Source: Candidatus Hermodarchaeota archaeon
GTDB lineage: Archaea; Asgardarchaeota; Lokiarchaeia; Sigyniarchaeales; SOKP01
Length of the DNA: 64,000 nt
Direction: 5' to 3'
Assembly: GCA_048885925.1 (NCBI GenBank)
Contig: JBHLLG010000007.1
Span: 22,806-86,805 of the forward strand
Below the pieces are notes generated by a model. It made no database searches. It had not been told where the DNA came from and was given only the letters and a program-made list of their open reading frames with translations. A program made the position numbers and the translations under genes. Shown piece after piece: positions 12,611 through 43,065 of the stretch. Numbering within the stretch: position 1 is the stretch's first letter; every line of letters starts with the position of its first letter.

Positions 12611-12614
12611 TTTA

Positions 12615-13925
12615 TTATACGCCTCCTTTTCTTGATGCTAAAGTAAATTTTTCAAAAGTGCCAATGTGATCTTTCACCTGCGATAGAATTTCTTCTTTGC
12701 TTAAGCTCACTTTAAAACCCTTAACTACTGTATTAGCAAATCGTTCTGCTTGATTAACACCCCACACTGTTTGACCATAACATCCAGTACAAGGGGCGTT
12801 AACTTTTACACATAAAGCACCGCAGCCAGCTCTAGTAACAGGTCCCATACAGATATAACCCTGTTCAATAAGACAATCCTCCATATTTGGAAGATCTTCA
12901 TAATCTCTCTTTACTCTGGTCATTGTTGATTTACTTCCAATAATTCTTGGACATGTATCGCAAACGTTTGATATTTCTGTAAAATCCGGATTTTTGCCTA
13001 AAAAGTTTAACAACGTAGATCCAATTTCTTCCGTAGATGGGGGTAAATTAGCTAAAGGTGTCTCAGGAGATCCACGTTTTTTGATTTGTTTTAATATATC
13101 TCCTGCTAGATCAAAACCTGCCATAAGTGGTAACCCCAAAAACAAAGTTGAAAATTCCAAAATCGACTTTTTATTACCTGAACTGATTGGAGTGAGATTT
13201 TTCACCATACTACTTAATTTATCAGCTCTTGAGTCTACTGTTTTCGCTGGTCCATAACAGCCAACACATGGTTTATTATCACTTGTACACTTTAAATTAC
13301 AACCTATACTTGTGATAGGACCAAAACATAAAGTACCTCTCATGAGTAAGCAATCATCTTTAATACTACAGTCATTGCAGAATGCGAGGTCATTCATTGG
13401 AAATGGTTTTTGACCTAATAAAAAGGCAACAGCACTAACAATCTGTTCTGGTTTTGGAGGACAACCTGCCATATAGACGTCTACGTTAATTACTTCATCA
13501 ACATTTATAATTTTATCCTGGAATTCGGGAACATGTTGAGTTGGAACTGTAGGTGTCTCATTTGTAGCAGATTCAACTTCGATAAATTTTCTTCTTTTCA
13601 ATGTTTCGATATCCCATTGGTTCGCTAATCCTGCTACATTTCCATAGGTAGCACAACTACCGAATGCAATTATCAATGCACATTTTTCTCTCATCAATTT
13701 AACATTTTCCAAATCTTGTTTAGTCCTTATTGCTCCTTCGATAAATCCTACTAAGACTGATCCAGAGGCTCTAGCTTTCAATGAATCTTCTTTAAAATCA
13801 ACTACAGCTGGCCAATATACAAATTCAAGTGCTGGTAGAACAGGCAACAATCCCAAATGTGCGTTCAAGAGGGATTGGTGACAGCCCCAACAGTCACTTA
13901 GTTGCATAAAAGCTACTTTCACCAT
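12615..13925 (-). CDS. vhuG: Hydrogenase small subunit (VhuG/MvhG) with duplicated C-terminal Fe-S module
   Basis: CWGC, GSCATYG, GCPP, then two copies of CxxC...CL...C.GP.T..GC...C....PC.GCYG. Confidence 0.88.
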   Translation of the reverse strand: MVKVAFMQLSDCWGCHQSLLNAHLGLLPVLPALEFVYWPAVVDFKEDSLKARASGSVLVGFIEGAIRTKQDLENVKLMREKCALIIAFGSCATYGNVAGLANQWDIETLKRRKFIEVESATNETPTVPTQHVPEFQDKIINVDEVINVDVYMAGCPPKPEQIVSAVAFLLGQKPFPMNDLAFCNDCSIKDDCLLMRGTLCFGPITSIGCNLKCTSDNKPCVGCYGPAKTVDSRADKLSSMVKNLTPISSGNKKSILEFSTLFLGLPLMAGFDLAGDILKQIKKRGSPETPLANLPPSTEEIGSTLLNFLGKNPDFTEISNVCDTCPRIIGSKSTMTRVKRDYEDLPNMEDCLIEQGYICMGPVTRAGCGALCVKVNAPCTGCYGQTVWGVNQAERFANTVVKGFKVSLSKEEILSQVKDHIGTFEKFTLASRKGGV

Positions 13926-14307: not shown

Positions 14308-14880
14308 TTAAAAAGAACCACATCCATCACATTTTCCATCGAGAAAAGCGGCACAATCGCTACATATATTTTCACATTTTTCTTCTTGACTTTCTTGGCT
14401 GAAAAGATTAATTGGTATATACTTAGGGGTGATAAGTTCAGACACGAATATAGTGGCAGAGTGAAGTATTCCTTTTTTATTCGTAGGTCCACAGTAATTA
14501 ATATATCTGTGAAGCACATCAATATTTTGGCCTATGACTCCTAATATTAAGTTATATTGACCTGTTACCTGAGCCAGTAAAAACACACGAGGGCAATTTT
14601 GATAGGCTTTAATTATATTTTGCACTTCATCATAATTACTCATTTCGATTAGTAAAAATAGAGATCTATATTGAAGTGTATTGATATTTGTATTCGCTTG
14701 AACCTTTAGAACTCCTGAATCCTCTAACTTCGAAATTCTCTTTGCAATACCTGTATGACTCATAGTTTCATCACCAGATTTATATATTACTTTTTCTAAG
14801 TTTGTCAAACTTTGACGCCCTTCTTTGAACAATTCTAATAAAATCTGTTTATCAATATTATCTAATTGCATAGTTTTCAT
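14308..14880 (-). CDS. Lrp/AsnC family regulator with C-terminal Cys cluster
   Basis: LDNIDKQIL...KRISKLEDSGV HTH, RAM domain (VTGQYNL), C-x3-C-x2-C-x7-C-x2-C tail. Confidence 0.85.
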   Translation of the reverse strand: MKTMQLDNIDKQILLELFKEGRQSLTNLEKVIYKSGDETMSHTGIAKRISKLEDSGVLKVQANTNINTLQYRSLFLLIEMSNYDEVQNIIKAYQNCPRVFLLAQVTGQYNLILGVIGQNIDVLHRYINYCGPTNKKGILHSATIFVSELITPKYIPINLFSQESQEEKCENICSDCAAFLDGKCDGCGSF

Positions 14881-15739
14881 ATTAAAACTAAATATAATTA
14901 ATTAGATCTTAATTACCAATTTTTAAAATTTGTCGTTTATAAAAAGTTAGCTTGATAATATTTCAAAATTTTATGTACGCTTTACATCTTTCTATTAAGA
15001 TATTTTATATTAATATTTACAACTTTAATTAAATTAAACAATAAATAATTAGTTTTCATGTATATAATGCCTTATCATCATTATTGTTTTTCTAATTAAT
15101 TAAGTAAATAATAGTTTACTTATTATATTTAATAAATATTAGGGGTTTTCAAACTGAAACTTTGAATAAAAAATCGTTGAAAAATGAAACTAAAAGGTAA
15201 TGGAATAGTATAATTATTTGAATTCACAAAATATAATGAATCCTTTTTTATATTAACGTTTCTAATAATATAATTATGACTTTGGATCAAATTGACAAAC
15301 AGATTCTTAAAACTTTATTTGAAAATGGTCGCGAAAGTTTAAGTTCTTTAAGTAAAATTGTATTAAAGTCGAATCAAGAAACAATGAGCCATGCAGGTAT
15401 TGCAAAGAGAATTTCGAAGTTAGAGGATTCAGGAGTTCTAAAGGTTCAAGGAAATATAAGTGCTAAGAGCTTAAATTATTACATTGCGTTTATTTTAATT
15501 GAAATGAGAAATTATAATGAAGTACAAAAAATTATTGATGCTTATGCAGAATGTCCCAGAGTATTTTTACTTGCTCACGTAGCTGGTCAATATAACTTGA
15601 TCTTTGGAGTAATAGGCCAAGATATTGATGTCTTACGCAGATATATTAATTACTGCGGACCTATGAATAAAAAAGGAATACTTCACTCTGCCACTATATT
15701 CGTGTCTGAACTTATCACCCCTAAGTATATACCAATTAA
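14408..15739. repeat. Two perfect inverted-repeat tracts shared by the Lrp paralogs
   Basis: 14697-14753 is the reverse complement of 15394-15450 (57 nt). 14408-14482 is the reverse complement of 15665-15739 (75 nt). Confidence 0.9.
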
Positions 15740-15839
15740 GCTTTTTAGTGGTGAAAGCAAAGAGCATAAATGTGAAAATATATGTAAAGCATGTGCTGCC
15801 TTTCTTGATGGAAAATGTAATGGATGTGGTAACTTCTAA
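15276..15839 (+). CDS. Lrp/AsnC family regulator with C-terminal Cys cluster (divergently oriented paralog)
   Basis: Same architecture as 14308-14880. Confidence 0.85.
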   Translation: MTLDQIDKQILKTLFENGRESLSSLSKIVLKSNQETMSHAGIAKRISKLEDSGVLKVQGNISAKSLNYYIAFILIEMRNYNEVQKIIDAYAECPRVFLLAHVAGQYNLIFGVIGQDIDVLRRYINYCGPMNKKGILHSATIFVSELITPKYIPIKLFSGESKEHKCENICKACAAFLDGKCNGCGNF

Positions 15840-16621: not shown

Positions 16622-17299
16622 TTGAGAAAAACTAAAATTCTTTCACTATTGATTTTTTCAGCCTTACTTATAGGAATTATAGGTGTAGCTGTAGGTTATC
16701 AAGAATACATATATAGATGGGTTAATAACGGAGCAGGTGGAACTCATGGTGCATGCCATGATTCGACTAAGACTAAATCAAGTGTAAATGGAACTTTAGT
16801 ATTGTCTATTAATGTAACAGGAGATTTATCCCCTTTACAACATTTTACCTTAGAGGTTGATGTTCTCAACTTTACAGAGGCTAATTTAGATCCTTATGCA
16901 GGTAGATTTACTTTAGGTGTACCCGGATATCGAGGTGATAACGCATTATTTACATCATCAGTAGCTCATCAAACATTGAATAGAGGAGAACAAGTAGATA
17001 GTTATGGATCCTATGATCCTTCTGATAATGATAATAAATTTGATCTAATTGCCCCTAATAAAGCTGGAACATATGATCTTTATGCAGTAGCAATAGCAGG
17101 GATGAATCAAACGGACGCATCTTTCTACAATCTTACTTACGTTGAAGATTCAATTGAAATTACTGTTACAGGCTCTACTGGTACAGGTGCAGAAACTATT
17201 TCGGGAGGAATTTTAACAATCGTTATTGGCAGCAGTGTTGCAGTAACATCTGTTTTAATATTAACAGTGAGAAAGCGAATGAAGAAAAAAGAATTGTAA
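16622..17299 (+). CDS. Exported, C-terminally anchored protein with HxxCH motif (HGACH) and beta-sandwich domain
   Basis: TTG start, signal-like N-terminus, HGACH at 16745-16759, C-terminal TM helix and basic tail. Confidence 0.75.
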   Translation: MRKTKILSLLIFSALLIGIIGVAVGYQEYIYRWVNNGAGGTHGACHDSTKTKSSVNGTLVLSINVTGDLSPLQHFTLEVDVLNFTEANLDPYAGRFTLGVPGYRGDNALFTSSVAHQTLNRGEQVDSYGSYDPSDNDNKFDLIAPNKAGTYDLYAVAIAGMNQTDASFYNLTYVEDSIEITVTGSTGTGAETISGGILTIVIGSSVAVTSVLILTVRKRMKKKEL

Positions 17300-17459
17300 A
17301 TTCAAAATACTAAATAAATATTATTTTTTTTTTATAATCTTAAATTTTAAAAGTTAAAAAAAATGTCTTAAATGTGAAAAATAGCAATACTCCTTACAAA
17401 CAAAAAGATTTGTCATTGTATTAAAATGTATCAGAATTATAATTATATAAAGCATTATC

Positions 17460-18191
17460 ATGAATATCCCAAAATTGTTACAGACTAATTTCCTTTTAAT
17501 TATTTCATTAACAATTTTGATGATTAATTTTTTTCTTATTTTAATCTTGACTTCCTTTAATCTCATTGTATGGGGAAGTCCTAATCGAATAGTATATATC
17601 ATTTTTTTTTATCATGTTTCTGGGGCTTGGCTTGCATATTTATCATATGGTCTAAGTTTACTATTTCATATTCTCTATTTGAAGAAACGAGAAATAAACT
17701 GGAATCGGTTGGGCACCAATAGCATAATAGTTGGAGTGTTTTTTACAGCATTTACATTAATTACTGGATCTTTATGGTACAATGCTACTTCTGGAGATTA
17801 TAACAATATTTACTGGCAATGGAGTGATGGTAGACAAACTATGACTTTAATATTGCTTCTTTGTTATTTAGCATATTTAATTTTTAGGAGTATGATTGAA
17901 GATAAAGAAAAAAGAGCAAAATTATCTTCAATTTTAGGTATTACTTTATTTCCTACAATACCCTTAAGTTATTTCTCGGCAATCATATTTACAAGCTTGC
18001 ATCCCCTAATTAATCCAACTCCTGGAGAGCCAGGTAATATTTATTGGGACCCCGTGAAATTATTCATGTTAATTTTTAATTTGATTGGAATAACCATCTT
18101 ATTTTTTTATGTTATTCAAAGATTAGGAGAATTAGATAAAGCAAAAGAAAAACTAGATAAAACTATACAAAAAAGGTTGATAGAGGAGTAA
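17460..18191 (+). CDS. ccmC: Cytochrome c biogenesis protein CcmC
   Basis: FFYHV, Trp-rich WQWSDGRQT (WWD-like), LHP; about 6 TM. Confidence 0.88.
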   Translation: MNIPKLLQTNFLLIISLTILMINFFLILILTSFNLIVWGSPNRIVYIIFFYHVSGAWLAYLSYGLSLLFHILYLKKREINWNRLGTNSIIVGVFFTAFTLITGSLWYNATSGDYNNIYWQWSDGRQTMTLILLLCYLAYLIFRSMIEDKEKRAKLSSILGITLFPTIPLSYFSAIIFTSLHPLINPTPGEPGNIYWDPVKLFMLIFNLIGITILFFYVIQRLGELDKAKEKLDKTIQKRLIEE

Positions 18192-18196
18192 TTTAA

Positions 18197-18349
18197 ATGG
18201 CACTACAATATTTTGATCAAGATTTAATAACAATAACAATTAGTTATATTTTATTTTGGGTAGTTATTATAATTCTAATCTTATATCCTAAACTTAGAAT
18301 AAGAAAAACTTTGAAAAGAATAAAAAAGTTGGAGAAAAATTTGAAGTAA
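18197..18349 (+). CDS. CcmD-like small membrane protein (absent from the ORF track)
   Basis: Manual translation MALQYFDQDLITITISYILFWVVIIILILYPKLRIRKTLKRIKKLEKNLK: one TM helix plus basic tail, located between ccmC and ccmE. Confidence 0.7.
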   Translation: MALQYFDQDLITITISYILFWVVIIILILYPKLRIRKTLKRIKKLEKNLK

Positions 18350-18353
18350 GTAG

Positions 18354-18701
18354 ATGATGAATATGAAAAAAACAAAAATTATTGCAATCACAGGAATTAT
18401 TATATCAATTATTGTTATAATTACGTTGCTTACATCAACTGCACGTCCTTATCTCACAGTCTCTCAAGTTGCCTTGAACCCTTCCAAATATGACAATAAA
18501 GAGATTCAAGTTATAGGTGTTGTACAAGGATTTGCTGGAAGTAATTTTAATTTAACTGAAAATGGATATAGTATTTATATAGATATAAATAGTTTAACTC
18601 CTTCAACTGATATGGAAAATGGAATTCAAGTTGTTGTAAAAGGAACATTTAGTTCATCTCTGGTTTTAATCGCAAACCAGATTCTTACACAGTGTAGTTA
18701 G
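18354..18701 (+). CDS. ccmE: Heme chaperone CcmE, Cys-type, ending at ...LTQCS
   Basis: N-terminal TM, YLTVSQV, OB-fold (VVVKGTF...ANQILTQC), ccm context. Confidence 0.8.
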   Translation: MMNMKKTKIIAITGIIISIIVIITLLTSTARPYLTVSQVALNPSKYDNKEIQVIGVVQGFAGSNFNLTENGYSIYIDINSLTPSTDMENGIQVVVKGTFSSSLVLIANQILTQCS

Positions 18702-18708
18702 ATCTTAT

Positions 18709-19434
18709 TTAATCATACAAAAGAGCACCTGAAGTTAATGCTATAATTGAGCTCATTAGAATTATATGTGCACCAAAAAATAGTACTTCGTAATATAGAT
18801 TTGATATTAATTCTCCTTCTAAAATTTTTATATTTATCGATATTATGGGAGTAATAATTGGTAGAATTAAAGGAAAAAATAAAATTGGTAAAATAAAGGA
18901 TTTATTTTTAACATACATCGAAAAGGCAGAAACAAAGCTCCCACATATAGATAAATCAAATGTGGGTAATAATATTCCAAGACTTATATAAATTAATAAC
19001 TGATTCGTATTAAAATTGCTAATCGATGGTGCTGATATAAAAAAACTGAAAAGAAATAAAATAATCTCAACGAAACTCAATAAGATAAAGCAAAAAAAGG
19101 TTTTACTAATAAGAATTAAGTTTGCTGATACGGGGGAAGAAATAAGTCCTCCTAATGTTCCAGAATCTTTCTCCTTTACAAAGAGTTTAGTCATAATATA
19201 AACAAGTGTAAAAAAAATTATAAGCCAGTTTTCAATAACAAAAATTTCCATAGGCATATTCTGATATTGAGTTCCGAAATTATAAACTGATGAAAATATG
19301 AAGATTGAAATTATATCAAAAAGAAAAATTGAAAATAAATCATTAATTTGTCGAAGTTCTGATTTAAGATCTTTAAATAATATTACTTTCAGCAACTTTA
19401 ACTTTGATTTGAATTTTATTTTCTCATTTTTCAA
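18709..19434 (-). CDS. ccmB: Heme exporter permease CcmB
   Basis: KDLKSELR, KEKDSGTLGGL, LPILFFPL; follows ccmA. Confidence 0.85.
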   Translation of the reverse strand: MKNEKIKFKSKLKLLKVILFKDLKSELRQINDLFSIFLFDIISIFIFSSVYNFGTQYQNMPMEIFVIENWLIIFFTLVYIMTKLFVKEKDSGTLGGLISSPVSANLILISKTFFCFILLSFVEIILFLFSFFISAPSISNFNTNQLLIYISLGILLPTFDLSICGSFVSAFSMYVKNKSFILPILFFPLILPIITPIISINIKILEGELISNLYYEVLFFGAHIILMSSIIALTSGALLYD

Positions 19435-19446
19435 TAAATATTCCCC

Positions 19447-20160
19447 CTAAAAATATGACTTAATTTCATATTCATTTAATTCCTCACGTGAAAAGGTTTT
19501 ACTGATTCTTCCTTTTTTTAAAATGATTAAATCATCACAAAGTTGTTGGAATACATCAATTTTATGAGTTGTAAGAATTATTGATATATTTTTATCATTT
19601 TTTAATTCTCTAAAAAAATTAATTAACATTTGGGTTGCATTGTAATCTAAACCCGAAAATGGCTCATCCAAGAAGAGGATTGGTGGATCATGTATTAACA
19701 CTCTAATTAATTCTACTTTTTGTTTCATTCCATGAGATAAAATTCTAACAGGTTCGTTGATCCAATCTGTTAAGTTGAATTTATTGCAATAATGCTTAAT
19801 TTTAGTCTCAAGATTCTTTTTCTCAAAATTCAAATGCAAATTAGCATAATATTTTAAATTTTCAAAAATAGTTAATTCTTGAAATAGAAAAGACTCATCA
19901 GTATTAATTCCAATATTTTGTTTTATAATGTCAGAATTATCCTCATAATTCATTCCATTTAGTATAATTTCACCTAATGTTGGTTTGAGCAATCCCGATA
20001 AAATCTTAATTAATGTTGTTTTACCTGCTCCATTTGCCCCCGCAATTCCAAAAATCGTATTTTCTCTAATTTTAAAAGAAATTTTTCTTAACGCAAAAAA
20101 ATATCCAAATTGTTTTGCAACATTATTGCAAGTTATTATGGTGTTATTTGATATGAACAT
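19447..20160 (-). CDS. ccmA: Heme exporter ABC ATPase CcmA
   Basis: GANGAGKTT, LSHGMKQK, LDEPFSGLD; ccm context. Confidence 0.85.
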   Translation of the reverse strand: MFISNNTIITCNNVAKQFGYFFALRKISFKIRENTIFGIAGANGAGKTTLIKILSGLLKPTLGEIILNGMNYEDNSDIIKQNIGINTDESFLFQELTIFENLKYYANLHLNFEKKNLETKIKHYCNKFNLTDWINEPVRILSHGMKQKVELIRVLIHDPPILFLDEPFSGLDYNATQMLINFFRELKNDKNISIILTTHKIDVFQQLCDDLIILKKGRISKTFSREELNEYEIKSYF

Positions 20161-20316
20161 GATCTCAATTGTAAGAGCTTAAACTATTTATCTATTGACT
20201 ATTAATAAGTGTTTAATTATTCAAAACTTTGTTTTAATATATTTATTAAGGTAAAAAATTATAAATTCTTAAAATGGAATAAAATAAAATTGAAAAATAA
20301 TATATTGAATAGATTT

Positions 20317-22035
20317 TTAGGCCTCAATTATTTTTTTCGTTGGAAAAAAAGTGATAAGAATTGAAGGAATTATTCCTATTAATAGTAGTATGAATCCTGG
20401 AATGAAAAAAATATCTTGATAATTCGAATTCATTAAAAATCCAGCAAGGATTAAGGAGATCCCTGCATGAATTATTGTTTTTGAATTCAATCTGAAAAAG
20501 TATTTTACTCCCTTTTTCATATTGAAATTTTTTATCAATTTGAATAGGGATGAAAATAACGATATCAAATAAATAAATAAAACAGGATTTATCCATATGT
20601 TTGAGGTAATTACAAGTATAAACGAAAGTACTGATTGAATTGAAAATCCTATAAGTATAACTAATCCTATCCATTTAATCTCGAAATATTCCCATAAGGA
20701 GCAAAAAGTAAGCGATAACGCTAAACCAGTAGCTAATATTAATGTTGTAATTATATAATAATCTATTTCAATTAAAATAATATCTAAAGGAAGAAAATTT
20801 GAGAGGATATAGGTAAAAGGGGGAACAAATAAGCCAAAGGTACATACAAAAGCTAAACCAAACAAAAATAAATAACTAAAATAATCAAATAGTAACTTTT
20901 TATTTCGATATTCCTCCATCAAATAATCTAGGACAATATAAATAACATAAAGGGAAAAAATGATTAATATAAGACCTAAAACTACTACCCATATAACTAG
21001 CTCTGCACCTTCAGCAAACGCATGAGCCGAACTTAACCCTCCTCCCCTTGTAATCAATGTTGAAAAAACGATTGAAGAAAAAATTAAACCCACATTAATG
21101 TTAATCAATTTAGGATTTTTTTTTTTAAAAATCATAGTATGAAAGAAAGCTGTTATGAAAAACCACGGAATAAGTGAAACAGTCTCAACAGGATCCCACC
21201 CCCAATATCTACCCCAAGGAGTCAAGGCAATTTTAGCCCAATATGCACCTAATCCAATACCTAAAGAGAGAACTAACCATCCAAATTTTAACGAAAAAGT
21301 ATAGAAATCCTGTTGATAGGTTCCTAATAATTTTTCTTTCCGAGTAATTGTTTCAGCAATTGTAATTGTAAAAGGAATCAAGAAAATAGCATACGCAATA
21401 AATGTAAAAAATGGATGCCATATCATAAATGGAGATATTAATAATGGATTTAACCCTAAACCATTAGGGAAATCAGGGGGTGAATTAATTTGAAATGGAT
21501 TCAATGAAAATAAAACAATCAAAAATATAATTGAAATAATTATTGAAATGATAACAGAACGTATAAAAACTAAATCTTCTCTATTTTGATTCTTAAGTCT
21601 ATATAAACTAATTATTATTGAATTAAAAACCATCCATGTCATAATCGAACCATCTTCTCCTGCCCAGATTGCAACAATTTTATATATTAATGAAAGTGTA
21701 GAATTGCTATAATTCATAACATATACTATTTCATAAATATTATTAAGAAAACTATACATCATTAATATAAACATAAATATTGTTAAATACACGTTAAAGA
21801 GAGAAAAGATATAATAATTTTGACGTTTAAAAACTATATAAACAAAATCAATAATCAATACGAAAATAAGAACCAATATAACATAATTACCTAAGGTTGA
21901 TATGAGAAGAACTCTAAAATTATATTCAATCAGATTTAAGACTAATGGTAGAATAAAGATTAATCCTAAAATTATTCCAATGTTAATAATAATAGACTTT
22001 TTTATTGACAATTCATCAAACTTCATATTTTTCAC
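20317..22035 (-). CDS. ccmF: Cytochrome c synthetase CcmF
   Basis: WAGEDGS, GLNPLL...WHP, WGRYWGWDPVET, FFH, SAHAFA. Confidence 0.93.
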   Translation of the reverse strand: MKNMKFDELSIKKSIIINIGIILGLIFILPLVLNLIEYNFRVLLISTLGNYVILVLIFVLIIDFVYIVFKRQNYYIFSLFNVYLTIFMFILMMYSFLNNIYEIVYVMNYSNSTLSLIYKIVAIWAGEDGSIMTWMVFNSIIISLYRLKNQNREDLVFIRSVIISIIISIIFLIVLFSLNPFQINSPPDFPNGLGLNPLLISPFMIWHPFFTFIAYAIFLIPFTITIAETITRKEKLLGTYQQDFYTFSLKFGWLVLSLGIGLGAYWAKIALTPWGRYWGWDPVETVSLIPWFFITAFFHTMIFKKKNPKLININVGLIFSSIVFSTLITRGGGLSSAHAFAEGAELVIWVVVLGLILIIFSLYVIYIVLDYLMEEYRNKKLLFDYFSYLFLFGLAFVCTFGLFVPPFTYILSNFLPLDIILIEIDYYIITTLILATGLALSLTFCSLWEYFEIKWIGLVILIGFSIQSVLSFILVITSNIWINPVLFIYLISLFSSLFKLIKNFNMKKGVKYFFRLNSKTIIHAGISLILAGFLMNSNYQDIFFIPGFILLLIGIIPSILITFFPTKKIIEA

Positions 22036-22124
22036 CTAAAATGAAAGAATATAAAACTTTAAATAAAGATTTTTGAAATATTTCATGACCTAATTAAAAA
22101 TTCTTTAAAGATTAAAAAAAAAGT

Positions 22125-24992
22125 TTAAGGAATAAATCTCTTCTTCTTCGAAGTTCTTACTATTAATACTATTCCCACAACTATAATACCGATTGTACTA
22201 GAATATATTATTAACTCATTTGTTTCTATTATTATCAAAGGATTAATGTTAGTTGATTTATCTGTAACCATAATGCTCTCAAGATAAGAATTCCAATTAT
22301 TATTAATGTCCTTTGCATGAATAGTAAAGAATAATTCTCCTGTATTACTTGGAGTCCAATTAATGTATTCCCAAGTATCTCCAAGTATATTCACCATAGT
22401 ATGGTTAAAACCTTCAAATTCAATGAAAACTTCACTGACACCAGAAAAATCGATAAGTTGTACTTGAATAGATACAGATTGCCCTAGAGTAATAGATTCT
22501 TCTGATTTCACCAGATTATAAAAATTTGGACCTGTCATATCTTTAATAGTAATGTTATCCTTTAATGAACCAATATTATTAATAGAATCAAATGCAAAGA
22601 TCTCATAGATTTTTAGACCTGTATTATTTGAAGTCCATATATTGCTTTGCCAGGTAAATCCTCCACTGAATGTCATTGTGTAGTTAATCTCTTCAATTTC
22701 TAATAATACTAGAGTTATTGGAGAAAAATCAGTAACATCTACTTGAATTATTGGCGTATTTCCTAATTCTAATGGATCAGTAATTTCAATTAAATTTGTT
22801 AATTTTGGACCAATTGTATCGATAACAGTAAGGTTATTATTTATGGAATTATAATTCTCATTTGAATCTTTGGCGTAAATAGAATAATTTTTTATTCCAA
22901 CAGATTGAGGAATCCAAGTATTATATTGCCAAATTGTACCTCCTATATTTGTCATCGTATAATTGCTCCCATCAATTTCTATAGAAACCAGTGTGATAAT
23001 TGAAAAATCTGTAGCATTAATTTGAATAATTGCTGTTTGTCCTATTTCTAATGGATCATAGTTTTCGTATAAGTTTGATAACTTTGGTGCTATAGTATCG
23101 ATTGTTTCAATAAATCCACTTGTACTATTCCAAATATTGGAATTATCTTTAATATAAATGGTATATGTATGCATATCGACTATACTGGGCTTCCAAGTAT
23201 CATATAACCACGTATTTCCTCCAATATAAGACATTGAATGATTCACACCTTCAAATTCAATTTTAACCTGGTTAATACCTGAAAAGTCTTTAGCATCAAT
23301 CGAAATCATAACTGAATTACCCAATTCGAGAGGATCACTACTTTCTGTTAAATTTTCAAAAATGGGCGGAGTTGTATCTAAAACCAATATATTATCACTA
23401 ATTTGATTCCAATTATTTAAAGAATCATTCGCAAGAATTTTAAACACTTTTATTCCAGTTGAAATTGGTGTCCACGTATATTCGTATCTAATAGCTCCAA
23501 CTTTCACCATTGTATGATTTATTCCTCCAATTTCGAAAAATACTTTACTTACTCCATCAGCATCTTCAATATCAACTTGAATAGTTTCGGGTTGACCTAG
23601 TTCTACGGATTCAGCACTTTTTGATAAGTTTTGAATTATTGGTCCTGATGATAGAATAACTTCAATAGAACCTATAGTCATGTTTAAATTATTGTTATTA
23701 TCAATCATGTAAATAGAATAATTATAAATCCCTATAGATGCTGGCTTCCACTGAGACCATCTCCACGTATTACTTCCAATAAAAATCATAGTGTGATTAA
23801 CATTATTATATTCAAGAAATACATCTTTTACTCCAGAGCCTGGCGAATCATAAACCGTAATTGTTATAGTTTCGTTATTCCCTAATGGGAGAGGATCAGC
23901 ACTTTCAATTAAAAAATCATATTTTGGTGCTATTGTGTCAATTACAGTAATATCACTACTAATAGAGTTCCAATTTCCTTCGATATCATTAGCATAAATT
24001 GTATAAGATTTTAACCCCATACTTATTGGTATCCAACTATTGTATTCCCAGGTTGAACTACCAATTTTCGTCATTGTATTATTAACATTATTGAGTTCTA
24101 TTAGAACGGAACTAATTCCTGATAAGTCAGAAACATTAATTTGAATAGTTTCTGTTTGACCTAGTTCTAAAGGATCAGCACTTTCAATTAAATTTGAGAA
24201 TGCTGGAACTGTAGTATCAATTACATTAATATTTCCAATAATCGAATTCCAACTTCCATCAGTATCATTTGCATAAATTTTGTAACTTTTGATACCAATT
24301 GTATTTGGAGTCCAATTAAATTCATATGTATTGCTTCCAATGTTTGACATTGTATAATTATTACCTTCTAACTCAATCAAAACAGTATCGACACTCGTTT
24401 CAGCGTCTATTACATCTATTTGAAAGCTTTCTTGCCCTCCTAGTTCTAGGGGATCACTGCTCTCTAGAAGATTATTAAATTGAGGTGGTAAGTTTTGTAC
24501 TTGAACATTTAGTATTAAATCTCCATGCGTAAAATATGAAGCAGAACCCCCTGCTCTGTATATTGCATCAGCGTGGAGAGTATAAGTTTGTTCAACAGAG
24601 GGAGCAGTAACTTGAAAGTTTAGAACTATAGAATTACCAGAACTATCTATGGAAACTGATTGTTGAGTTGTAACAAAAATAAAATCTTTATTATCAGCTC
24701 TGCCTGGACTACCACTTGGAAATCCTGCCTCAATATTGTTTCCCTGTGCTTCTGTAAAGCTTATTATTTGAATGCTAACTGTAAAAGTTTCGCTCGGATT
24801 GATAGTAGTTCCCGAACTTGATAAAAGCGTGATATATCCTGTGGTACTCTGTGTAATATTTCCATGACAACTACCATGACCTTCACCAGAAAAATCATTA
24901 AAATCTTCTGTTCTAGCTAAAGCAAAACCTAGAATTAAAAAAACCAGTATAATTGTGATTAAACCAGATGACATTTTTTTATTTATTCTCAT
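22125..24992 (-). CDS. Cell-surface protein: HxxCH (HGSCH) head domain, 8 Ig-like repeats, C-terminal TM anchor
   Basis: Signal-like N-terminus, HGSCH at 24878-24864, eight ~94-aa repeats starting P.F.NL.ES.DPLELG, C-terminal hydrophobic helix and KKKR. Confidence 0.8.
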   Translation of the reverse strand: MRINKKMSSGLITIILVFLILGFALARTEDFNDFSGEGHGSCHGNITQSTTGYITLLSSSGTTINPSETFTVSIQIISFTEAQGNNIEAGFPSGSPGRADNKDFIFVTTQQSVSIDSSGNSIVLNFQVTAPSVEQTYTLHADAIYRAGGSASYFTHGDLILNVQVQNLPPQFNNLLESSDPLELGGQESFQIDVIDAETSVDTVLIELEGNNYTMSNIGSNTYEFNWTPNTIGIKSYKIYANDTDGSWNSIIGNINVIDTTVPAFSNLIESADPLELGQTETIQINVSDLSGISSVLIELNNVNNTMTKIGSSTWEYNSWIPISMGLKSYTIYANDIEGNWNSISSDITVIDTIAPKYDFLIESADPLPLGNNETITITVYDSPGSGVKDVFLEYNNVNHTMIFIGSNTWRWSQWKPASIGIYNYSIYMIDNNNNLNMTIGSIEVILSSGPIIQNLSKSAESVELGQPETIQVDIEDADGVSKVFFEIGGINHTMVKVGAIRYEYTWTPISTGIKVFKILANDSLNNWNQISDNILVLDTTPPIFENLTESSDPLELGNSVMISIDAKDFSGINQVKIEFEGVNHSMSYIGGNTWLYDTWKPSIVDMHTYTIYIKDNSNIWNSTSGFIETIDTIAPKLSNLYENYDPLEIGQTAIIQINATDFSIITLVSIEIDGSNYTMTNIGGTIWQYNTWIPQSVGIKNYSIYAKDSNENYNSINNNLTVIDTIGPKLTNLIEITDPLELGNTPIIQVDVTDFSPITLVLLEIEEINYTMTFSGGFTWQSNIWTSNNTGLKIYEIFAFDSINNIGSLKDNITIKDMTGPNFYNLVKSEESITLGQSVSIQVQLIDFSGVSEVFIEFEGFNHTMVNILGDTWEYINWTPSNTGELFFTIHAKDINNNWNSYLESIMVTDKSTNINPLIIIETNELIIYSSTIGIIVVGIVLIVRTSKKKRFIP

Positions 24993-25140
24993 GTAAATCC
25001 CCTTTTTTTAAACGTTAAACATTAAAATTCTGAATTCTAAATGGAAATGTTTTTAAACGTTTAAATAAATTCAATTTTTTTGAATTTAAATTACTCAAAT
25101 ATATTATATATTTGATTAAATTAAAGAAATCTAAAATAAT

Positions 25141-25234
25141 TTATAAGATTACCTTAAACTGGTTATTTTAAACAATCGATTGATATTGTGTTTCATTTTC
25201 TGACTGTTTTTCTTTTTCAGTTTCAAATTGAAAT
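25141..25234 (-). promoter_or_regulatory. Second copy of the conserved upstream block
   Basis: Minus strand ATTTCAATTTGAAAC-N15-GTCAGAAAATGAAAC-N13-ATTGTTTAAAATAACCAGTTTAAGGTAAT. Confidence 0.65.
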
Positions 25235-25578
25235 ATCCAAATCTACTTGAATTTTACTTATTTTAGTCAAGTCAAATTAAATGCTATTTTATAAGATTTT
25301 TCAACTTTTCTATTCCAAATTTTATTTTTATATATGTAGTTTTTTTAAAAAATATAATTCAAATATTGCACGAATTGTCCCTAAAAACAGCTTAACTTTT
25401 TTGTTTAGGAAACAAAATAAAAATTTCAATAATTAAAAAGCTCATTGTAGAAATTAGGTGAAATTATTGCTATAATATTTTAAAAAGGCTTTGATTTTTA
25501 AAATATATTAATCAAGTTTATAAAAGTATAAAAATATAACAAAAAGCAAAAGAATTCATAAAATATTGGATAAGAACC

Positions 25579-26421
25579 ATGAAAAAGAAAATTCTTTTAT
25601 TTTTAATTATTGTCAGCTTAATGCCAATTTTAGTAATCTCTTTCGGAACAAGTAGACCTGGTTATGGTGATACTCATGATGTTTGCCATGATACAGCGGG
25701 ATATACAATTGATACTACTGCTTTAGAAGAGATTCCAGCAATCATATCATCAAATGTTATTTTTAATATTACGGCAACTGGATCTAATTTATTTGTTCAA
25801 GCAATATCTGGTGCTAAAGATAACGATCTCTTTGTAATATTACCAACAACAGATAGAATTAATGAAAGTTCTATTCATGATTTAGATCCAACTCCTAATT
25901 CAATTAAAGTTATATTTAACGTTACTACACCCTCAGAGGATGGTTATTACACAATTTTCATTATTGCAGGGAATGACGCAAGTGGACAAATAAACTTCGC
26001 TTATCAACAGATCTATATTAATGTTGGGGGAGTTACAGCACCACGCCCTGTTTTTAATATTTTTGATCATTTTGGAATGTTTCTTGGTTTACCTGCATTA
26101 ATTTTTCTGACACTAGGGACGATATTAGTATTAGTAAATGAAAGTAAATTTGTTAAAGTTCATGGGATTTTAGCAGGATCTTCTTGGATTTTAACATTAA
26201 TAAATGTAGTAACTCTAGTAACAAAGAATCCGGCTATCTGGGTTGCATTTCCTTTAACTACACATTGGACTCACATTTTTTTAGGAGGTTTTGGATTACT
26301 TACCGGATTATTTAGTATGTTTTTTGGAATTGCAGCAGAACGTAAACCAGCAAAAATAACGGGATATATTACATTGATTTGCTGGTGGGGAGCTTTCTTT
26401 TTTGGTTTTTTATTTATATAA
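25579..26421 (+). CDS. Exported HxxCH (HDVCH) domain fused to a 4-TM His-rich cytochrome b-like domain
   Basis: HDVCH at 25675-25689; TM His residues (DHFG, KVHG, THWTH); C-terminal half paralogous to 42511-43065. Confidence 0.7.
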   Translation: MKKKILLFLIIVSLMPILVISFGTSRPGYGDTHDVCHDTAGYTIDTTALEEIPAIISSNVIFNITATGSNLFVQAISGAKDNDLFVILPTTDRINESSIHDLDPTPNSIKVIFNVTTPSEDGYYTIFIIAGNDASGQINFAYQQIYINVGGVTAPRPVFNIFDHFGMFLGLPALIFLTLGTILVLVNESKFVKVHGILAGSSWILTLINVVTLVTKNPAIWVAFPLTTHWTHIFLGGFGLLTGLFSMFFGIAAERKPAKITGYITLICWWGAFFFGFLFI

Positions 26422-26510: not shown

Positions 26511-27926
26511 TTGGATTCAATTAAAAAATTTATTTCTCCTTATCATGTAAGTACTAATCCATATGAACTAGAATCTGCTTCAGCAGACCTCACATCATTA
26601 CCCTCTTATCATTATAAGTTTAAGAAAAAATATCTTGCAAGTTACATTATTCGTCCAGCAGATACTGATGAACTTTCTTTGACCATAAAAAAGTGTAGAG
26701 AATTAGAGATTCCAGTTACAATTAGAGCTGCTGGTACTTCTTGCTTTTCTTCAGCTACACCTTCTAAAGGTGGTGTTATTATAGATGTGCGTAGAATAAA
26801 TAAAATTCTTGAAATAGATACTAAAAAAATGACTGTCAAAGTTGGAAGTGGAATTTCTTGGTTAAATTTAATAGAAGCACTTGCAGATCATGGACTTGAA
26901 CCAAAAGTTTTTCCAACAAGCTTTAAGACTTCGTGTGTTTGTGGTTTTATAGCTACTCCAGGAAAAGCAGGGATTGGGGTCTTAAAATATGGTCCAATGA
27001 AAGATTCAATTATTTCACTAACCATGGTACGCCCTGATGGTTCAATAATTAAGGTTTCAAGAGATTCAAACCAAGACGTTTCGCTGGATGATATTGTTGG
27101 AACTTATGGAATATATGGTGCTATTACAGATGTTGAATTATCAATAACTACACTTAAAACATCTTTAGAAATAATTGGTTATGGTTTTGATTCAATTAAT
27201 CAAGCTTTTAACTTTTATTCAACATTAAAGGATCAACTTCCAAATGTACCGTTTTTCCTTTCTATTTCAGGTAGAGATTTTGAAAAATATTCTCATGTAA
27301 GTTTCCCTGAGCGTGAATGGTTAGTTTGGGCAGTTTTTTATGATGATCCTGAGGAAACCTCTAAAAGCATATCGGCTGTTAAAAATTTTGCTTCAAAGAT
27401 GAATGCTTTCGAAGTTGAAAGTTCTTACTTAAAGGAAAAATGGCGAGATATTAGTGATGCTGAAGTATCGATAGGATTATCCGCGAGAAATTTAATATTT
27501 CAGGAATATTGGATTTCTGATGAAAGATTACAAGTTTTTATAGAACAATATATTAAACAGAAAAGACGGTACAAATTTCCTACAGCCACCTATTCTATCT
27601 CAGGAGAAAAAGGATGGACTAGAGTTAAGATTTTTGGTTTATCCGATATTAGTAAACCACGTGAATTTTTTGCTGTTAAGGCATTTTTACATGATTTATC
27701 AAAATATGCCTTTAATCAAGGTGATCGACTCTATACTATAGGAATTGTTAATACTTTCTATTTACATAAATATAAACCTGAAGAAGTGGCAAAGAGAAAA
27801 CAATTAAAGGATGAATTGGATCCCCAACATTTATTCAATTCATACAGAATAATTGAAGCAAAGATGAAATTCTGGAGAATATCTTTACTATTTAATACAG
27901 CGAAATTTTTATATAAATTATTTTAA
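26511..27926 (+). CDS. FAD-linked oxidoreductase (GlcD/VAO-PCMH family)
   Basis: IRAAGTS, GGVIIDV, GTYGIYGAIT, DPQHLFN. True start may lie upstream at 26436 or 26439. Confidence 0.85.
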   Translation: MDSIKKFISPYHVSTNPYELESASADLTSLPSYHYKFKKKYLASYIIRPADTDELSLTIKKCRELEIPVTIRAAGTSCFSSATPSKGGVIIDVRRINKILEIDTKKMTVKVGSGISWLNLIEALADHGLEPKVFPTSFKTSCVCGFIATPGKAGIGVLKYGPMKDSIISLTMVRPDGSIIKVSRDSNQDVSLDDIVGTYGIYGAITDVELSITTLKTSLEIIGYGFDSINQAFNFYSTLKDQLPNVPFFLSISGRDFEKYSHVSFPEREWLVWAVFYDDPEETSKSISAVKNFASKMNAFEVESSYLKEKWRDISDAEVSIGLSARNLIFQEYWISDERLQVFIEQYIKQKRRYKFPTATYSISGEKGWTRVKIFGLSDISKPREFFAVKAFLHDLSKYAFNQGDRLYTIGIVNTFYLHKYKPEEVAKRKQLKDELDPQHLFNSYRIIEAKMKFWRISLLFNTAKFLYKLF

Positions 27927-28053: not shown

Positions 28054-29394
28054 ATGAATGAAAGTGAAGAAGCATCAGATTTAAAAGATGTAATTACTTC
28101 AGGTCCTCCAGTTGCAGGATTAGTTGCTCCTTCTAGAGAAAACCTCATTAAACCCTCAACAAAGTTGAAGGATAAATACTCATATGAGCGTTGTACCCAT
28201 TGTGGATATTGTCGTCATGTTTGTAAGGTGTATAATGTATCTTGGAGTGAAACGGATTATGCTGGTGGTCGTAATAGAATAATTAAAGCATTAGATCGCA
28301 AAGATGTAAAATTTGATCGTGAAGAAATCATTCCTTCTGTTTTTCGTTGTATGTTATGTGGAAATTGCCAAGAAGTTTGTCCAGTTGGAGTTGAAACTTT
28401 GAGTGTTTTTCAACACTTACGCAAACAAGTTGTTAAAAAGGGAGCTATACCCGCAAAGTTAAAAATCCTTAAAAATTCGATATTAGAAAATAACAATCCC
28501 TTCCTTGAACAACATGTAGATCGATTTAATTGGTGTGAATCATGTGAAGAAGGCGCAAGAGCATATTCACGCGCAAAAGATAAGTTTGATGCCTTAAAAG
28601 AAGAAAAACCTTATACTGTGGGTTATTTTGTCGGTTGCACTTCTTCTTACAGGAATAAAGAATTAGTTTCATCTACGAGTAAAGTTTTAGAGAAATTGGG
28701 TATTGAGTTTGTTGTTTTTCCCGATGAACAATGTTGTGGTTCAGTTTTATTTCGAACCGGATTAGAAAATGCCGCTCTTAAACTTGTAAAACATAACTAT
28801 AAAATGATCCGTAAAAGTGGTGTAAAAGAAGTCGTATTTTCATGTTCTGGTTGCTTCTCGACATTTAATCTCGAATACTCACGATTAATCGATCATCAAC
28901 TTGAATTTAACCTTTACCATCTTACTCAATTCGTTTTGAAAACTGTGAAAGAAAAGAATCTTAAAATTAGATATACAAAACGTTCAAAAGATGACCCATT
29001 ACTTATTACATACCATGATCCCTGTCACTTAGGTAGATATTGTGGAGTTTATGAAGAACCCCGAGAACTAATAAAAATGATTGAAGGAGTAAAGCTTTTC
29101 GAGATGAAACATAACCGAAATATGTCTTGGTGTTGTGGTGCTGGAGGTGGTGTGAAAGCGCTTTATGGTGATATCGCAGTTGAGGTAGGTAGGGATAGAT
29201 TAAATGAAACTCGTGCTTGTATGATACGAATTCGTGAGGATCGTCTTAAAGAAGCGTTAGAAACCAGTGCCGAGGTTCTTGTCAGTTCTTGTGTTTTTTG
29301 TAAGAATAATCTATTCGAAGTAGCAAATGAAGATAATTCTCCAATAAAAGTTATGGACATTTCTCAACTTTTAGTCGATTGTGAATTTTATTAA
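28054..29394 (+). CDS. GlcF/HdrD-like Fe-S protein (2x[4Fe-4S] plus two CCG domains)
   Basis: CTHCGYC, CMLCGNCQEVCP, CCGS, YHDPCHLGR, CCGAGGG. Confidence 0.88.
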   Translation: MNESEEASDLKDVITSGPPVAGLVAPSRENLIKPSTKLKDKYSYERCTHCGYCRHVCKVYNVSWSETDYAGGRNRIIKALDRKDVKFDREEIIPSVFRCMLCGNCQEVCPVGVETLSVFQHLRKQVVKKGAIPAKLKILKNSILENNNPFLEQHVDRFNWCESCEEGARAYSRAKDKFDALKEEKPYTVGYFVGCTSSYRNKELVSSTSKVLEKLGIEFVVFPDEQCCGSVLFRTGLENAALKLVKHNYKMIRKSGVKEVVFSCSGCFSTFNLEYSRLIDHQLEFNLYHLTQFVLKTVKEKNLKIRYTKRSKDDPLLITYHDPCHLGRYCGVYEEPRELIKMIEGVKLFEMKHNRNMSWCCGAGGGVKALYGDIAVEVGRDRLNETRACMIRIREDRLKEALETSAEVLVSSCVFCKNNLFEVANEDNSPIKVMDISQLLVDCEFY

Positions 29395-41490: not shown

Positions 41491-42384
41491 GTGGTTATAA
41501 GTATGGAAATAAGTAGCTTATTATCTATATATGGAGAAATTATCAAAGCTAAGCAAACTATTTTACTATTATATACTGCTATAATCTCATACTTCATAAC
41601 TGTAGTCGAATTTCGATTAAATATTAATTGGGTAAATTTTATTTTTGTAATCTTATCATTATTTTTAGCAATATCAGGCTCGACTGCTTTGAACATGTAT
41701 ATTGATAGAGATATTGATGCAATCATGGAACGGACGAAAGATCGTCCCTTACCTAGTGGAAAGGTTACTCCGTCGCTAGTTCTTATTAATGGAATTGTAA
41801 TGACGGTTTTAGGAGTATTTATTGCGTTTTTTCTACTTAATTTTTATGCGACTTTAGTAATTTTTTTAGGCTTTTTCTTTGATGTTATTGTCTATAGTAT
41901 TTTACTAAAAAGAAGAACGAAATTTAGTATAATTTTTGGAGGTGTAGCTGGGGGTCTTCCTGCTTTAGCAGCTAGAGTCGCAATATTAGGATTAGTCGAT
42001 TGGATAGGATTACTGTTTTTAATCTTTATATTAACTTGGATTCCAGTACATATTCTTACTTTAGCATTAATTCCGAAGAATTATAAAGGGTATAAAGAAG
42101 CAAAAATACCTATGTGGCCTGTTGTTAGTTCAGAAAAAGGAACCATGAGAGTTATTGCAACAGGAGCCTTTTTTAGTTCGGTATCACTCTATGAAAGTGC
42201 TCAACTTTTAGATGCTAATGGCGTTATTAGGATTATTATTGCCATATGTTGTGTATTTCTCATATATTTAACCATAAAAGACTTAATAAAACCCTCAACC
42301 AGACTTACCTTTATAATCTTCAAAGTTGCTTCACTTTATATGATTATGGGATTTTTAATGCTTTATTTAGGCGTTGTCTTTTAA
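41491..42384 (+). CDS. ctaB: Protoheme IX farnesyltransferase (heme O synthase)
   Basis: NMYIDRDIDAIMERTKDRPLPSG, YSILLKRRT, GGVAGGLP, WIPVH. Confidence 0.92.
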   Translation: MVISMEISSLLSIYGEIIKAKQTILLLYTAIISYFITVVEFRLNINWVNFIFVILSLFLAISGSTALNMYIDRDIDAIMERTKDRPLPSGKVTPSLVLINGIVMTVLGVFIAFFLLNFYATLVIFLGFFFDVIVYSILLKRRTKFSIIFGGVAGGLPALAARVAILGLVDWIGLLFLIFILTWIPVHILTLALIPKNYKGYKEAKIPMWPVVSSEKGTMRVIATGAFFSSVSLYESAQLLDANGVIRIIIAICCVFLIYLTIKDLIKPSTRLTFIIFKVASLYMIMGFLMLYLGVVF

Positions 42385-42510: not shown

Positions 42511-43065
42511 ATGACAACATTTTTCGCTGAACTGGGCTTAATGATTTCAATTGCGATGATACTAATAGCCTTATGCATAATATTAAACACTATAAAAGCA
42601 AGAGAAAAAAAAGTGAATTATATCGTTTTAACTTTAATAATTATCTTTGTAATTTTGTTTACGATATTACTTATTATTAACGGTATTGCTTGGTTTAATG
42701 ATGATAGTCTTCATTTAGGATTAATTCTTGGTCTACCTGCATTGATTCTCATAACAACTGCAATGGTTCTCGTATTATATAACGAGCAGAAATTTGTTTT
42801 TTGGCATGGATTATTAGGCATCTCATCTTGGGTTGTTACATTAGTAAATGTAATTGCATTATTCTGGATGCCTGGTAATCAAGTAATTAACTATTCAGGA
42901 TTAACACACTTTATGCATATTATCGGAGGTGGAGGCGGTTTAGCAGCAGGTTTTACCAACGCCTTATTCGGAACTTCTGGACAGCGAAAACTCGCTAAGT
43001 TAACTGGTTATATTACAATGGGTTGTTGGTGGGGTGCTTTTTTTTTAGGCCTCCTTCTTTTATAG
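42511..43065 (+). CDS. His-rich cytochrome b-like membrane protein
   Basis: LHLG, FWHG, THFMH, TGYITMGCWWGAFF; paralog of the C-terminal half of 25579-26421. Confidence 0.6.
   Translation: MTTFFAELGLMISIAMILIALCIILNTIKAREKKVNYIVLTLIIIFVILFTILLIINGIAWFNDDSLHLGLILGLPALILITTAMVLVLYNEQKFVFWHGLLGISSWVVTLVNVIALFWMPGNQVINYSGLTHFMHIIGGGGGLAAGFTNALFGTSGQRKLAKLTGYITMGCWWGAFFLGLLLL

Follow-up and report, generated by a model that had tools for sequence, protein, structure and literature searches.

The need for two thioether bonds in c-type cytochromes and the recognition of the CXXCH motif by the System I (Ccm) maturation machinery are long-standing questions. Euglenozoan mitochondrial cytochromes c and c1 carry a single-cysteine (A/F)XXCH motif, and covalent bonds between a His residue and a haem vinyl group are known from CcmE (His130) and from the cyanobacterial GlbN. 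The closest described maturation system is the streamlined archaeal System I of Methanosarcina acetivorans, which consists of CcmA, CcmB, CcmC, CcmE and CcmF without CcmH, uses a Cys and not a His in CcmE, and has a CcmF with WWD motif and His ligands (PMC9084895). Here, we analysed a stretch of 64,000 nucleotides (the window) from a Candidatus Hermodarchaeota archaeon (contig JBHLLG010000007.1), in which a ccm cluster is flanked by three genes for related putative surface proteins, called P1, P7 and P8, whose N-terminal motif resembles CXXCH with a His in place of the first Cys. We consider it fairly probable that P1, P7 and P8 are covalent-haem proteins served by a variant System I with His-for-Cys clients, which would be a new variant. 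The pattern, as read from sequence comparison, suggests that haem is attached to protein here in a manner not described before. All of these proteins are annotated as 'hypothetical', and we found no publication on an H-x-x-C-H haem motif or on Ccm in Lokiarchaeia in the open full text, a search space outside of which subscription journals and supplements lie.

The window belongs to contig C7 of a 3.9 Mb genome of 181 contigs, which is 95% complete with 4.4% contamination. Its G+C content is 26-36%, and close homologues of its proteins are named as proteins of Promethearchaeota or Lokiarchaeota metagenome-assembled genomes (MAGs), which identifies the source as an Asgard archaeon. The cluster occupies 16.6-29.4 kb in the order P1-ccmC-D-E (+), ccmB-A-F-P7 (-) and P8-GlcD-HdrD (+), and the presence of the ccmC-D-E and ccmF-A-B sets was verified with Pfam/NCBIfam profiles:

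16622..17299 (+): P1, 225 aa, putative exported surface protein with C-terminal anchor; HGACH at residues 42-46 (nt 16745-16759), then a beta-rich domain
17460..18191 (+): ccmC (Pfam Cytochrom_C_asm 1e-16, TIGR01191 2e-19)
18197..18349 (+): ccmD-like, 50 aa, single transmembrane (TM) helix (Pfam CcmD 26.1 bits, above the cut-off of 25.6, E 8.9e-6)
18354..18701 (+): ccmE variant with C-terminus …LTQCS (Pfam CcmE 1.2e-6)
18709..19434 (-): ccmB (Pfam CcmB 1.1e-10)
19447..20160 (-): ccmA, ABC ATPase (Pfam ABC_tran 6e-32; TIGR01189 112 bits, below the cut-off of 131.6)
20317..22035 (-): ccmF haem lyase (Pfam/NCBIfam; alignment with Thermus CcmF 6ZMQ, E 1.6e-26)
22125..24992 (-): P7, 955 aa, putative surface protein; HGSCH at residues 39-43 (nt 24864-24878), Big_7 Ig-like repeats, C-terminal TM anchor
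25579..26421 (+): P8, 280 aa; HDVCH at residues 33-37 (nt 25675-25689), N-terminal domain fused to a 4-TM domain
26511..27926 (+): GlcD-like FAD-linked dehydrogenase (Pfam FAD_binding_4 2e-32; glcD 9e-32, below cut-off; synteny)
28054..29394 (+): HdrD/GlcF/TfrB-like Fe-S protein with 2x[4Fe-4S] and two CCG domains (Pfam/NCBIfam, synteny)

A check of the open reading frames (ORFs) reproduced the coordinates and motifs of the three flanking genes as reported in a preliminary description of this DNA, including the position of the motif shortly after a signal-like segment, a basic and hydrophobic N-terminus lying 15-25 residues ahead of it. The beta domain shared by the three proteins was likewise recovered: their N-terminal domains align with 26-31% identity, and H, C, H, DN..F and P...Y are invariant among them. 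Export of P1, P7 and P8 is suggested by the N-terminal segment and by CTERM sorting signals in homologues, as judged from the sequences themselves rather than from a dedicated predictor; Loki-CTERM/Heimdall-CTERM signals occur in P1 homologues, where one of five scanned proteins scored above the cut-off. For P1, word-indexed searches provided 54 relatives, for P8 a listing of 120 out of 200 and for the P7 N-terminus 46, altogether 220 close homologues, of which five without N-terminus were left out and 215 were scored. Among the matches listed, the CH pair is present in 215 of 215 and a His is found 2, 3 or 4 residues upstream of it in 213 (P1 52/53, P8 118/119, P7 43/43), the two proteins without it being P0052 and P0163, while CxxCH occurs in none of the 220. 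This degree of conservation bears out the earlier claim that the His at the position of the first Cys is not a random mutation. The spelling HxxCH was too narrow; His and CH are kept, and the spacing is wider, i.e. H-x(2-4)-C-H. A reading as XXXCH with a freely variable first position (H, S, E or A) was dropped, because the raw upstream sequence shows the His at spacing 2, 3 or 4. P1, P7 and P8 themselves do not have the CXXCH of c-type cytochromes, or its forms CX3-4CH and CXXCK, the first Cys being a His. They share the missing first Cys and the invariant CH with the Euglenozoan (A/F)XXCH cytochromes, but those are unrelated proteins, differing in fold and in a maturation factor that is not Ccm, and their first position is Ala or Phe instead of a conserved His with variable spacing.

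The same domain exists with the canonical residue. A search of 399 genomes of the phylum with a profile of the three sequences detected the domain in 65 of them, and 40 loci were fetched and annotated with local BLASTP. In the fetched loci, the family of the window (f1) contributes 62 domain copies, of which 57 are His-type, five have neither residue and none is Cys-type; other Asgard families contribute 20 copies, 19 of them Cys-type and one with neither. The Cys-type copies comprise CxxCH (9), Cx4CH (7), Cx3CH (1) and CxCH (2), and in local alignments the first Cys of the Cys-type proteins aligns to the His column. Thirteen P8 orthologues of about 400 aa are all Cys-type and have the 4-TM domain in common with P8, with 39-47% identity; P8 orthologues of another Asgard family thus have the CXXCH of c-type cytochromes or one of its forms. 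The neighbourhood is similar as well: a GlcD-like gene follows 12 of the 13, an HdrD-like gene is found at most of them where the locus extends far enough, and ccmF lies about 0.5-4.5 kb away in nine of the 13 loci and about 17 kb away on the same contig in a tenth. A profile of 56 domain sequences, used for an exhaustive search with HMMER, returned 785 proteins at E<=1e-3, and the motif was typed in 144 new representatives among the best 150 of these. Sixty were Cys-type (40 with CxxCH), 47 His-type and 17 had CH only, the other 20 being giant repeat proteins without motif that match in the Ig-like half only. Within this set CxxCH is the commonest form family-wide, and it stands directly after the signal peptide. 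Named Cys-type members are 'hypothetical protein' entries of Candidatus Thorarchaeota MAGs, and named His-type members belong to Promethearchaeota or Hodarchaeota MAGs. Because the copies of another Asgard family, P8 orthologues included, carry C-x(1-4)-CH, mostly as CxxCH, the domain is most likely a c-type cytochrome module, and haem is most likely its cofactor.

The distribution of the two motif types over a tree argues for more than one change. An IQ-TREE tree of 53 domains was calculated from the 148 residues after CH, with the motif columns excluded. One super-clade, with a support of 99*, unites the P1 and P7 domains (15 His, 5 Cys), and the other domains comprise 22 Cys, 8 His and 3 with neither residue. 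The P8 of the window's family is placed, with a support of 98*, among Cys-type proteins of about 280-340 aa; the starred branches require at least two His/Cys changes. A single clade of all 23 His rows lowers the log-likelihood by 77.9 units and is rejected by the approximately unbiased (AU) test (p 9.6e-5), the group so tested having been picked after a FastTree ordering had been seen. We infer that Cys was replaced by His at least twice, in separate paralogues of one lineage, with a direction that, in a tree without established root, is taken solely from Cys being the commoner, canonical state. Parallel fixation of His in separate paralogues argues for a lineage-wide change in motif use and against drift. 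The competing view is that these are ordinary single-thioether haem proteins with a chemically idle upstream His produced by lineage drift, and that the changes in CcmE and CcmC described below are unrelated drift in a horizontally acquired ccm set. The 17 of 144 representatives (best 150 of 785) and the five of 62 window-family copies that have neither His nor Cys fit this view, since they indicate that the first position is dispensable. However, it does not account for the retention of the His in 213 of the 215 homologues listed despite spacing changes between 2 and 4, nor for its having arisen or become fixed in two or more paralogue clades within one lineage, and we give it only a slim chance.

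The association of His-type proteins with ccm genes reaches far beyond the window. In 20 loci of the window's family the gene order is kept, with one or two Lrp-like genes, one or two copies of P1 followed by ccmC-D-E, then ccmB-A-(P7)-ccmF and P8-GlcD-HdrD; Lrp/AsnC-like orthologues with 63-85% identity flank the cluster in most of these loci, and the GlcD-like gene always immediately follows P8. Among the 134 genomes of the family, the domain was found in 30, CcmE in 28 and CcmF (>=50% identity) in 27. Domain and ccm (CcmE and/or CcmF) occur together in 29 genomes, the domain alone in one, ccm alone in none, and 104 genomes have neither. In the Cys-type family (f31), CcmF is present in 29 of 34 domain-positive genomes and CcmE in three more, and the remaining two genomes are only 60% and 74% complete. 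In a third family (f16), ccm is present in 17 genomes out of 22, and no copy of the domain occurs. Hence, the linkage first seen from the flanking position of the three genes is supported by cross-genome co-occurrence.

Next to the complete ccmABCDEF set, an ordinary client seems to be missing. The preliminary description had noted the lack of an exported CxxCH protein in the window, and a six-frame ORF scan extends this to the whole, 95%-complete genome, whose 39 CxxCH ORFs either belong to Fe-S, Zn-ribbon and dehydrogenase proteins or are short and spurious. The sole signal-bearing ORF with a CxxCH string codes for a 516-aa protein with beta-helix repeats on contig C95 (L077:358-1908, -); it was rejected as Ccm client, the CWACH being located in a Cys-rich, cytoplasmic Zn-ribbon-like tail behind a TM helix. 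The domain profile finds exactly three copies in the genome, all of them within the window, and a locus scan of the genome contigs with P7 residues 1-175 gave no confirmed relative. The P1/P7/P8-type surface proteins thus appear to be the only plausible Ccm clients in this genome. The suggestion that this Ccm is dedicated to HxxCH substrates is partly supported, in so far as ccm linkage, the lack of an ordinary CxxCH client and the CxxCH relatives agree with it, and needs correction in so far as the motif is H-x(2-4)-C-H.

Compared to the System I of M. acetivorans, the machinery itself shows common features and deviations. CcmA, B, C, E and F are present and CcmH is absent, as in that archaeon; CcmH (PF03918) was found in none of the five genomes tested, the window's genome included. 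The reported lack of ccmH is thus correct, but the archaeal study describes it as the normal archaeal state (PMC9084895), for which reason it is no evidence for the HxxCH reading. In that same account CcmD is missing from archaea (PMC9084895), whereas 18 of the 19 loci examined here have a CcmD-like ORF in the interval from ccmC to ccmE. CcmF is canonical, with the WWD motif WGRYWGWDPV and with H207, H299, H338 and H523 invariant in 31 sequences (21 of the window's family, 10 of the Cys-type family); its length is about 570 aa in the window's family compared to about 690 aa in the Cys-type family. Deviations concern CcmE and, apparently, CcmC. Archaeal CcmE is stated to carry universally a CXXXY motif, with the Cys being required in M. 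acetivorans (PMC9084895). In the window's family the Cys of this motif is kept and the Tyr is gone: the window CcmE stops at …QCS, and all 19 regular sequences end with …Q-C-S-stop. CcmE of other Asgard families reads C-P-S-K/R-Y in 29 of 30 cases and CLSKF in one. Of the 99 positions of the Pfam CcmE profile, the match reaches position 92-96 in the window's family (position 93 for 18 of 28 genomes), compared to position 98 in nearly all genomes of the Cys-type family; comparison of CcmE with PDB sequences gave nothing meaningful. The WWD motif of CcmC reads …TSGDYNNIYWQWSDGRQT in the window's family, with an insertion and an extra Ser in 19 of 19 sequences, and …TWGSPWNWDPRET in the Cys-type family, this single canonical sequence being the comparison; also this altered WWD motif would set the locus apart from the archaeal System I as described (PMC9084895), as does the H-x(2-4)-CH instead of CxxCH of its sole candidate clients. 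CcmC His52 and His181 are conserved in the window-family alignment. At the level of sequence, the Ccm machinery is altered at CcmE and apparently at CcmC, and these alterations coincide with the motif change. A divergent sub-lineage, consisting of the genomes G189 (locus L040) and G228 (locus L041), has P8-like proteins that read …LGCH, with neither His nor Cys ahead of the CH; CcmE of G189 ends with …YCCDRSTGV, and this genome has two tandem ccmF copies with 47-48% identity to the window ccmF.

The state of these genes also bears on another possibility, namely that the domain serves structure or adhesion alone at the cell surface, next to ccm genes that are a decaying remnant. Ig-like repeats, CTERM sorting signals and the absence of haem synthesis would agree with it. 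But the six ccm ORFs are intact, their catalytic His and WWD residues are conserved in at least 20 genomes with 50-88% identity, and the domain occurs in natural fusions with HdrD-like Fe-S modules, which makes this idea extremely improbable.

A further claim was that HxxCH substrates would need no disulfide reduction. CcdA (PF02683) is indeed absent from the window's genome according to the profile search and present in four of four Cys-type genomes, but among the 29 genomes of the window's family that have ccm, seven show a DsbD_TM match, hence the absence of CcdA is a tendency and no rule. With all 134 genomes of the family counted, 24 have CcdA. The G226 copy is part of the cluster itself, and that of G228 follows shortly after the portion of the cluster contig that was fetched.

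Taken together, the following course of events may be proposed. P1, P7 and P8 would represent c-type cytochromes with a single haem, exported or anchored at the surface, from a family specific to Asgard archaea. They would be built from an N-terminal haem motif and a subsequent Ig-like beta domain, with the first Cys of C-x(n)-C-H having been swapped for His in the Lokiarchaeia-type lineage. A lineage-specific System I, composed of CcmABCD, a CcmE with Cys-Ser end without Tyr and a canonical CcmF, would export haem and attach it via the single Cys of the invariant CH, presumably by a single thioether, and the next His would serve as proximal ligand. Single-Cys clients are also known from engineered XXXCH variants offered to the E. 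coli Ccm, which form a CcmE-haem-cytochrome ternary complex; there, this complex is a trapped dead end (PMC3268396), whereas in the present lineage the whole natural client set is single-Cys and CcmE and CcmC are changed. The trapping in E. coli suggests that the conserved upstream His, and likewise the altered CcmE, perhaps help to resolve the CcmE-haem intermediate.

We consider it quite unlikely that the upstream His goes further and takes the role of the missing Cys, with one thioether and one His-vinyl bond formed by a co-evolved CcmE/CcmC. The chemistry would be that of CcmE His130 and GlbN, in which a His side chain bonds a haem vinyl, and the upstream His here is a candidate for such a bond. 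If true, a His-vinyl bond would add a class of its own to the covalent haem linkages and a new client specificity to Ccm, and it would be located on surface proteins for electron transfer in the closest archaeal relatives of eukaryotes.

The domain make-up of P8 and its neighbours suggests a likely function. In the 4-TM domain of P8, His164, His195 and His232 are invariant and His229 is near-invariant among 43 sequences of both families; in a topology drawn by inspection, TM1 and TM3 carry His164 and His232, respectively, close to their outer ends, and TM2 carries His195 close to its inner end. No significant Pfam, NCBIfam, PDB-sequence or Atlas family was obtained for the membrane domain, which is probably a haem-b carrier. 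HdrDE, DsrMK and GlpC-type systems are membrane dehydrogenase modules in which a haem-b anchor is combined with an HdrD-like CCG protein. The P8 locus is similar in coupling a cytoplasmic Fe-S/CCG subunit to a His-rich membrane domain; it differs in that the membrane domain of P8 has no Pfam match and its haem content is deduced from three to four invariant His only. Moreover, P8 resembles eukaryotic DOMON-cytochrome b561 fusions, as it fuses an outward-facing beta-sandwich redox domain to a membrane domain. In two natural fusions (P0275 and P0279) the His-type domain is connected through one TM helix to an HdrD-like module with 2x[4Fe-4S] and CCG. P8 would thereby couple the haem domain to its His-rich 4-TM domain and work together with the adjacent GlcD-like and HdrD-like proteins, and P1, P7, P8 and the dehydrogenases may form an electron path between a cytoplasmic 2-hydroxyacid-type oxidation and the cell surface, with a substrate, a direction of electron flow and an external partner that are presumed here. 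A second, related module is found at 41491-45958 of the window:

41491..42384 (+): haem O synthase-like prenyltransferase, CyoE/CtaB family (TIGR01473 200.1 bits against a cut-off of 210.3, E 6e-59; Pfam UbiA)
42511..43065 (+): stand-alone paralogue of the P8 membrane domain (BLASTP against P8 residues 164-280: 50% identity, E 7e-31; four His kept)
43096-44562 and 44594-45958 (+): second pair of a GlcD-like and an HdrD-like gene (Pfam/NCBIfam)

Several findings weigh against a covalent-haem function of P1, P7 and P8, one of which concerns the cofactor supply. ALAD (PF00490) is absent from the window's genome and from 133 of the 134 genomes of its family, a positive control having found it in 11 of 14 reference genomes, and no AhbD scored above the cut-off. 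However, ALAD is also absent from five of five well-completed Cys-type genomes, thus its absence does not single out the His-type lineage, and haem import or scavenging would be needed whichever motif is used; haem scavenging is accordingly assumed in the proposed course. In favour of haem, G226, the sole genome of the 134 with ALAD, has an Ahb-type haem operon that precedes the His-type ccm cluster of this genome by about 12 kb, and the haem O synthase-like gene of the window lies next to a paralogue of the P8 membrane domain. The G226 operon contains hemB, hemL, an AhbD/NirJ2-like radical-SAM gene, ahbA, an ahbB-sirC fusion, hemA, hemC and cobA-hemD, and true AhbA/AhbB are restricted to this genome. 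The operon at this locus (L073, G226:C2:46000-65999) represents a complete siroheme-route (Ahb) haem operon; the locus also codes for a 379-aa protein (L073:17719-18858) weakly like the haem-b subunit of dimethyl sulfoxide (DMSO) reductase and Sulfolobus CbsA. In the window's genome, a haem-modifying gene, the haem O synthase-like one, sits in a genome without ALAD. As a marker of ccm this gene was discarded, since it is found in 11 of 29 ccm-positive and six of 105 ccm-negative genomes, which is a partial link only.

The known behaviour of Ccm and the limits of the co-occurrence have to be considered as well. In E. coli, maturation of single-Cys cytochromes by Ccm is very inefficient (PMC3268396), which makes a natural set of His-type clients surprising. 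One genome that is 93% complete (G272) has a P8-like gene with …NDNCH, and no ccm was found in it. Furthermore, the co-occurrence counts overstate the number of independent events, because kin are not independent.

The domain itself lacks several attributes of a cytochrome. Searches of Pfam, NCBIfam, PDB sequences and the Atlas gave no significant family for it, and none of the Pfam cytochrome families matches. It is beta-rich and Ig-like by weak PDB/Atlas matches, namely to cadherin-like, DUF11-like and Reeler-like Ig folds, and an Atlas model of P8 (pLDDT 0.70) resembles Ig-like folds only (TM 0.31-0.40, nine rows outside its own cluster). A relation to the choice-of-anchor V domain (NF041895) is indicated by weak whole-domain matches (E 3e-6 to 2e-4) and by the occurrence of both with alternative C-terminal anchors, but the scores of 13-28 bits (best 28.5) are all below the curated 42-bit cut-off. 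One P8 homologue bears the UniRef name 'Cytochrome oxidase subunit I profile domain-containing', which was assigned automatically from a profile and is given no weight here. In the domain alignment no conserved Met or His was seen that might act as sixth haem ligand, the invariant columns of the profile alignment are C, H and one Asn only, and the motif spacing varies between 1 and 5 residues including C-x-CH forms, which is unusual for haem c; we know of no haem c motif of the type C-x-CH. Cys-to-His exchange together with flexible spacing is typical of metal-ligand loops.

Since the exchange of Cys for His is also a classic metal-ligand swap, the main rival remains the one named already in the preliminary description, a non-haem metal site. 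In this view, an Ig-like surface domain would bind Cu, Fe or Zn through its H/C-x(n)-C-H loop, with His and Cys being interchangeable, and the ccm genes would serve another, unrecognised client or be linked only by shared regulation of a redox module. The Cys/His exchange, the spacing, the C-x-CH forms, the missing distal ligand and the matches to Ig folds instead of cytochromes would all suit such a site. It would, however, leave the Ccm of this genome without client, and it explains neither the co-occurrence pattern (29/1/0/104) nor the interleaved gene order. Moreover, the commonest form is CxxCH after a signal peptide (40 of 144 among the best 150 of 785), the adjacent Cys-His of the invariant CH is a signature of haem c, and the motif change coincides with the changes in CcmE and CcmC. 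We therefore regard the metal site as unlikely; the CxxCH relatives and the ccm linkage favour haem.

The remaining genes of the region provide context for the cluster. Two regulator genes lie upstream of P1:

14308..14880 (-): Lrp/AsnC-like regulator with Cys-rich C-terminal tail (NCBIfam LysM/AsnC/Lrp-type matches, all below cut-off)
15276..15839 (+): second Lrp/AsnC-like regulator, paralogue of the gene at 14308..14880 (NCBIfam matches, synteny)

Both bear an extra Cys-rich tail at the C-terminus (C-x3-C-x2-C…C-x2-C), and the pair may act as redox- or metal-sensing regulators. An assignment as siroheme decarboxylases AhbA/AhbB was rejected, the window copies matching regulator families only. 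Just upstream of the ccm cluster, a Mvh/Hdr-type hydrogenase set extends from 9606 to 13925, with an HdrB-like CCG protein (9606-10484, -), the large subunit of a NiFe-hydrogenase (11306-12610, -) and a VhuG-like small subunit (12615-13925, -). A 1277-aa ORF at 3855-7688 (-) is without Pfam match, and a 661-aa leucine-rich-repeat protein at 30197-32182 (-) belongs to a eukaryote-like repeat family.

With respect to the questions raised at the outset, a lineage whose System I apparently handles clients that lack the first Cys, and whose CcmE and CcmC show changes to match, represents a natural experiment. If the proposed explanation is true, some Lokiarchaeia-type Asgard archaea would display haem proteins on their surface and would have them wired to cytoplasmic FAD/Fe-S dehydrogenases. 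They would do so while apparently being unable to make haem, which would be relevant to how syntrophy and cofactor dependence around the emergence of eukaryotes are modelled.

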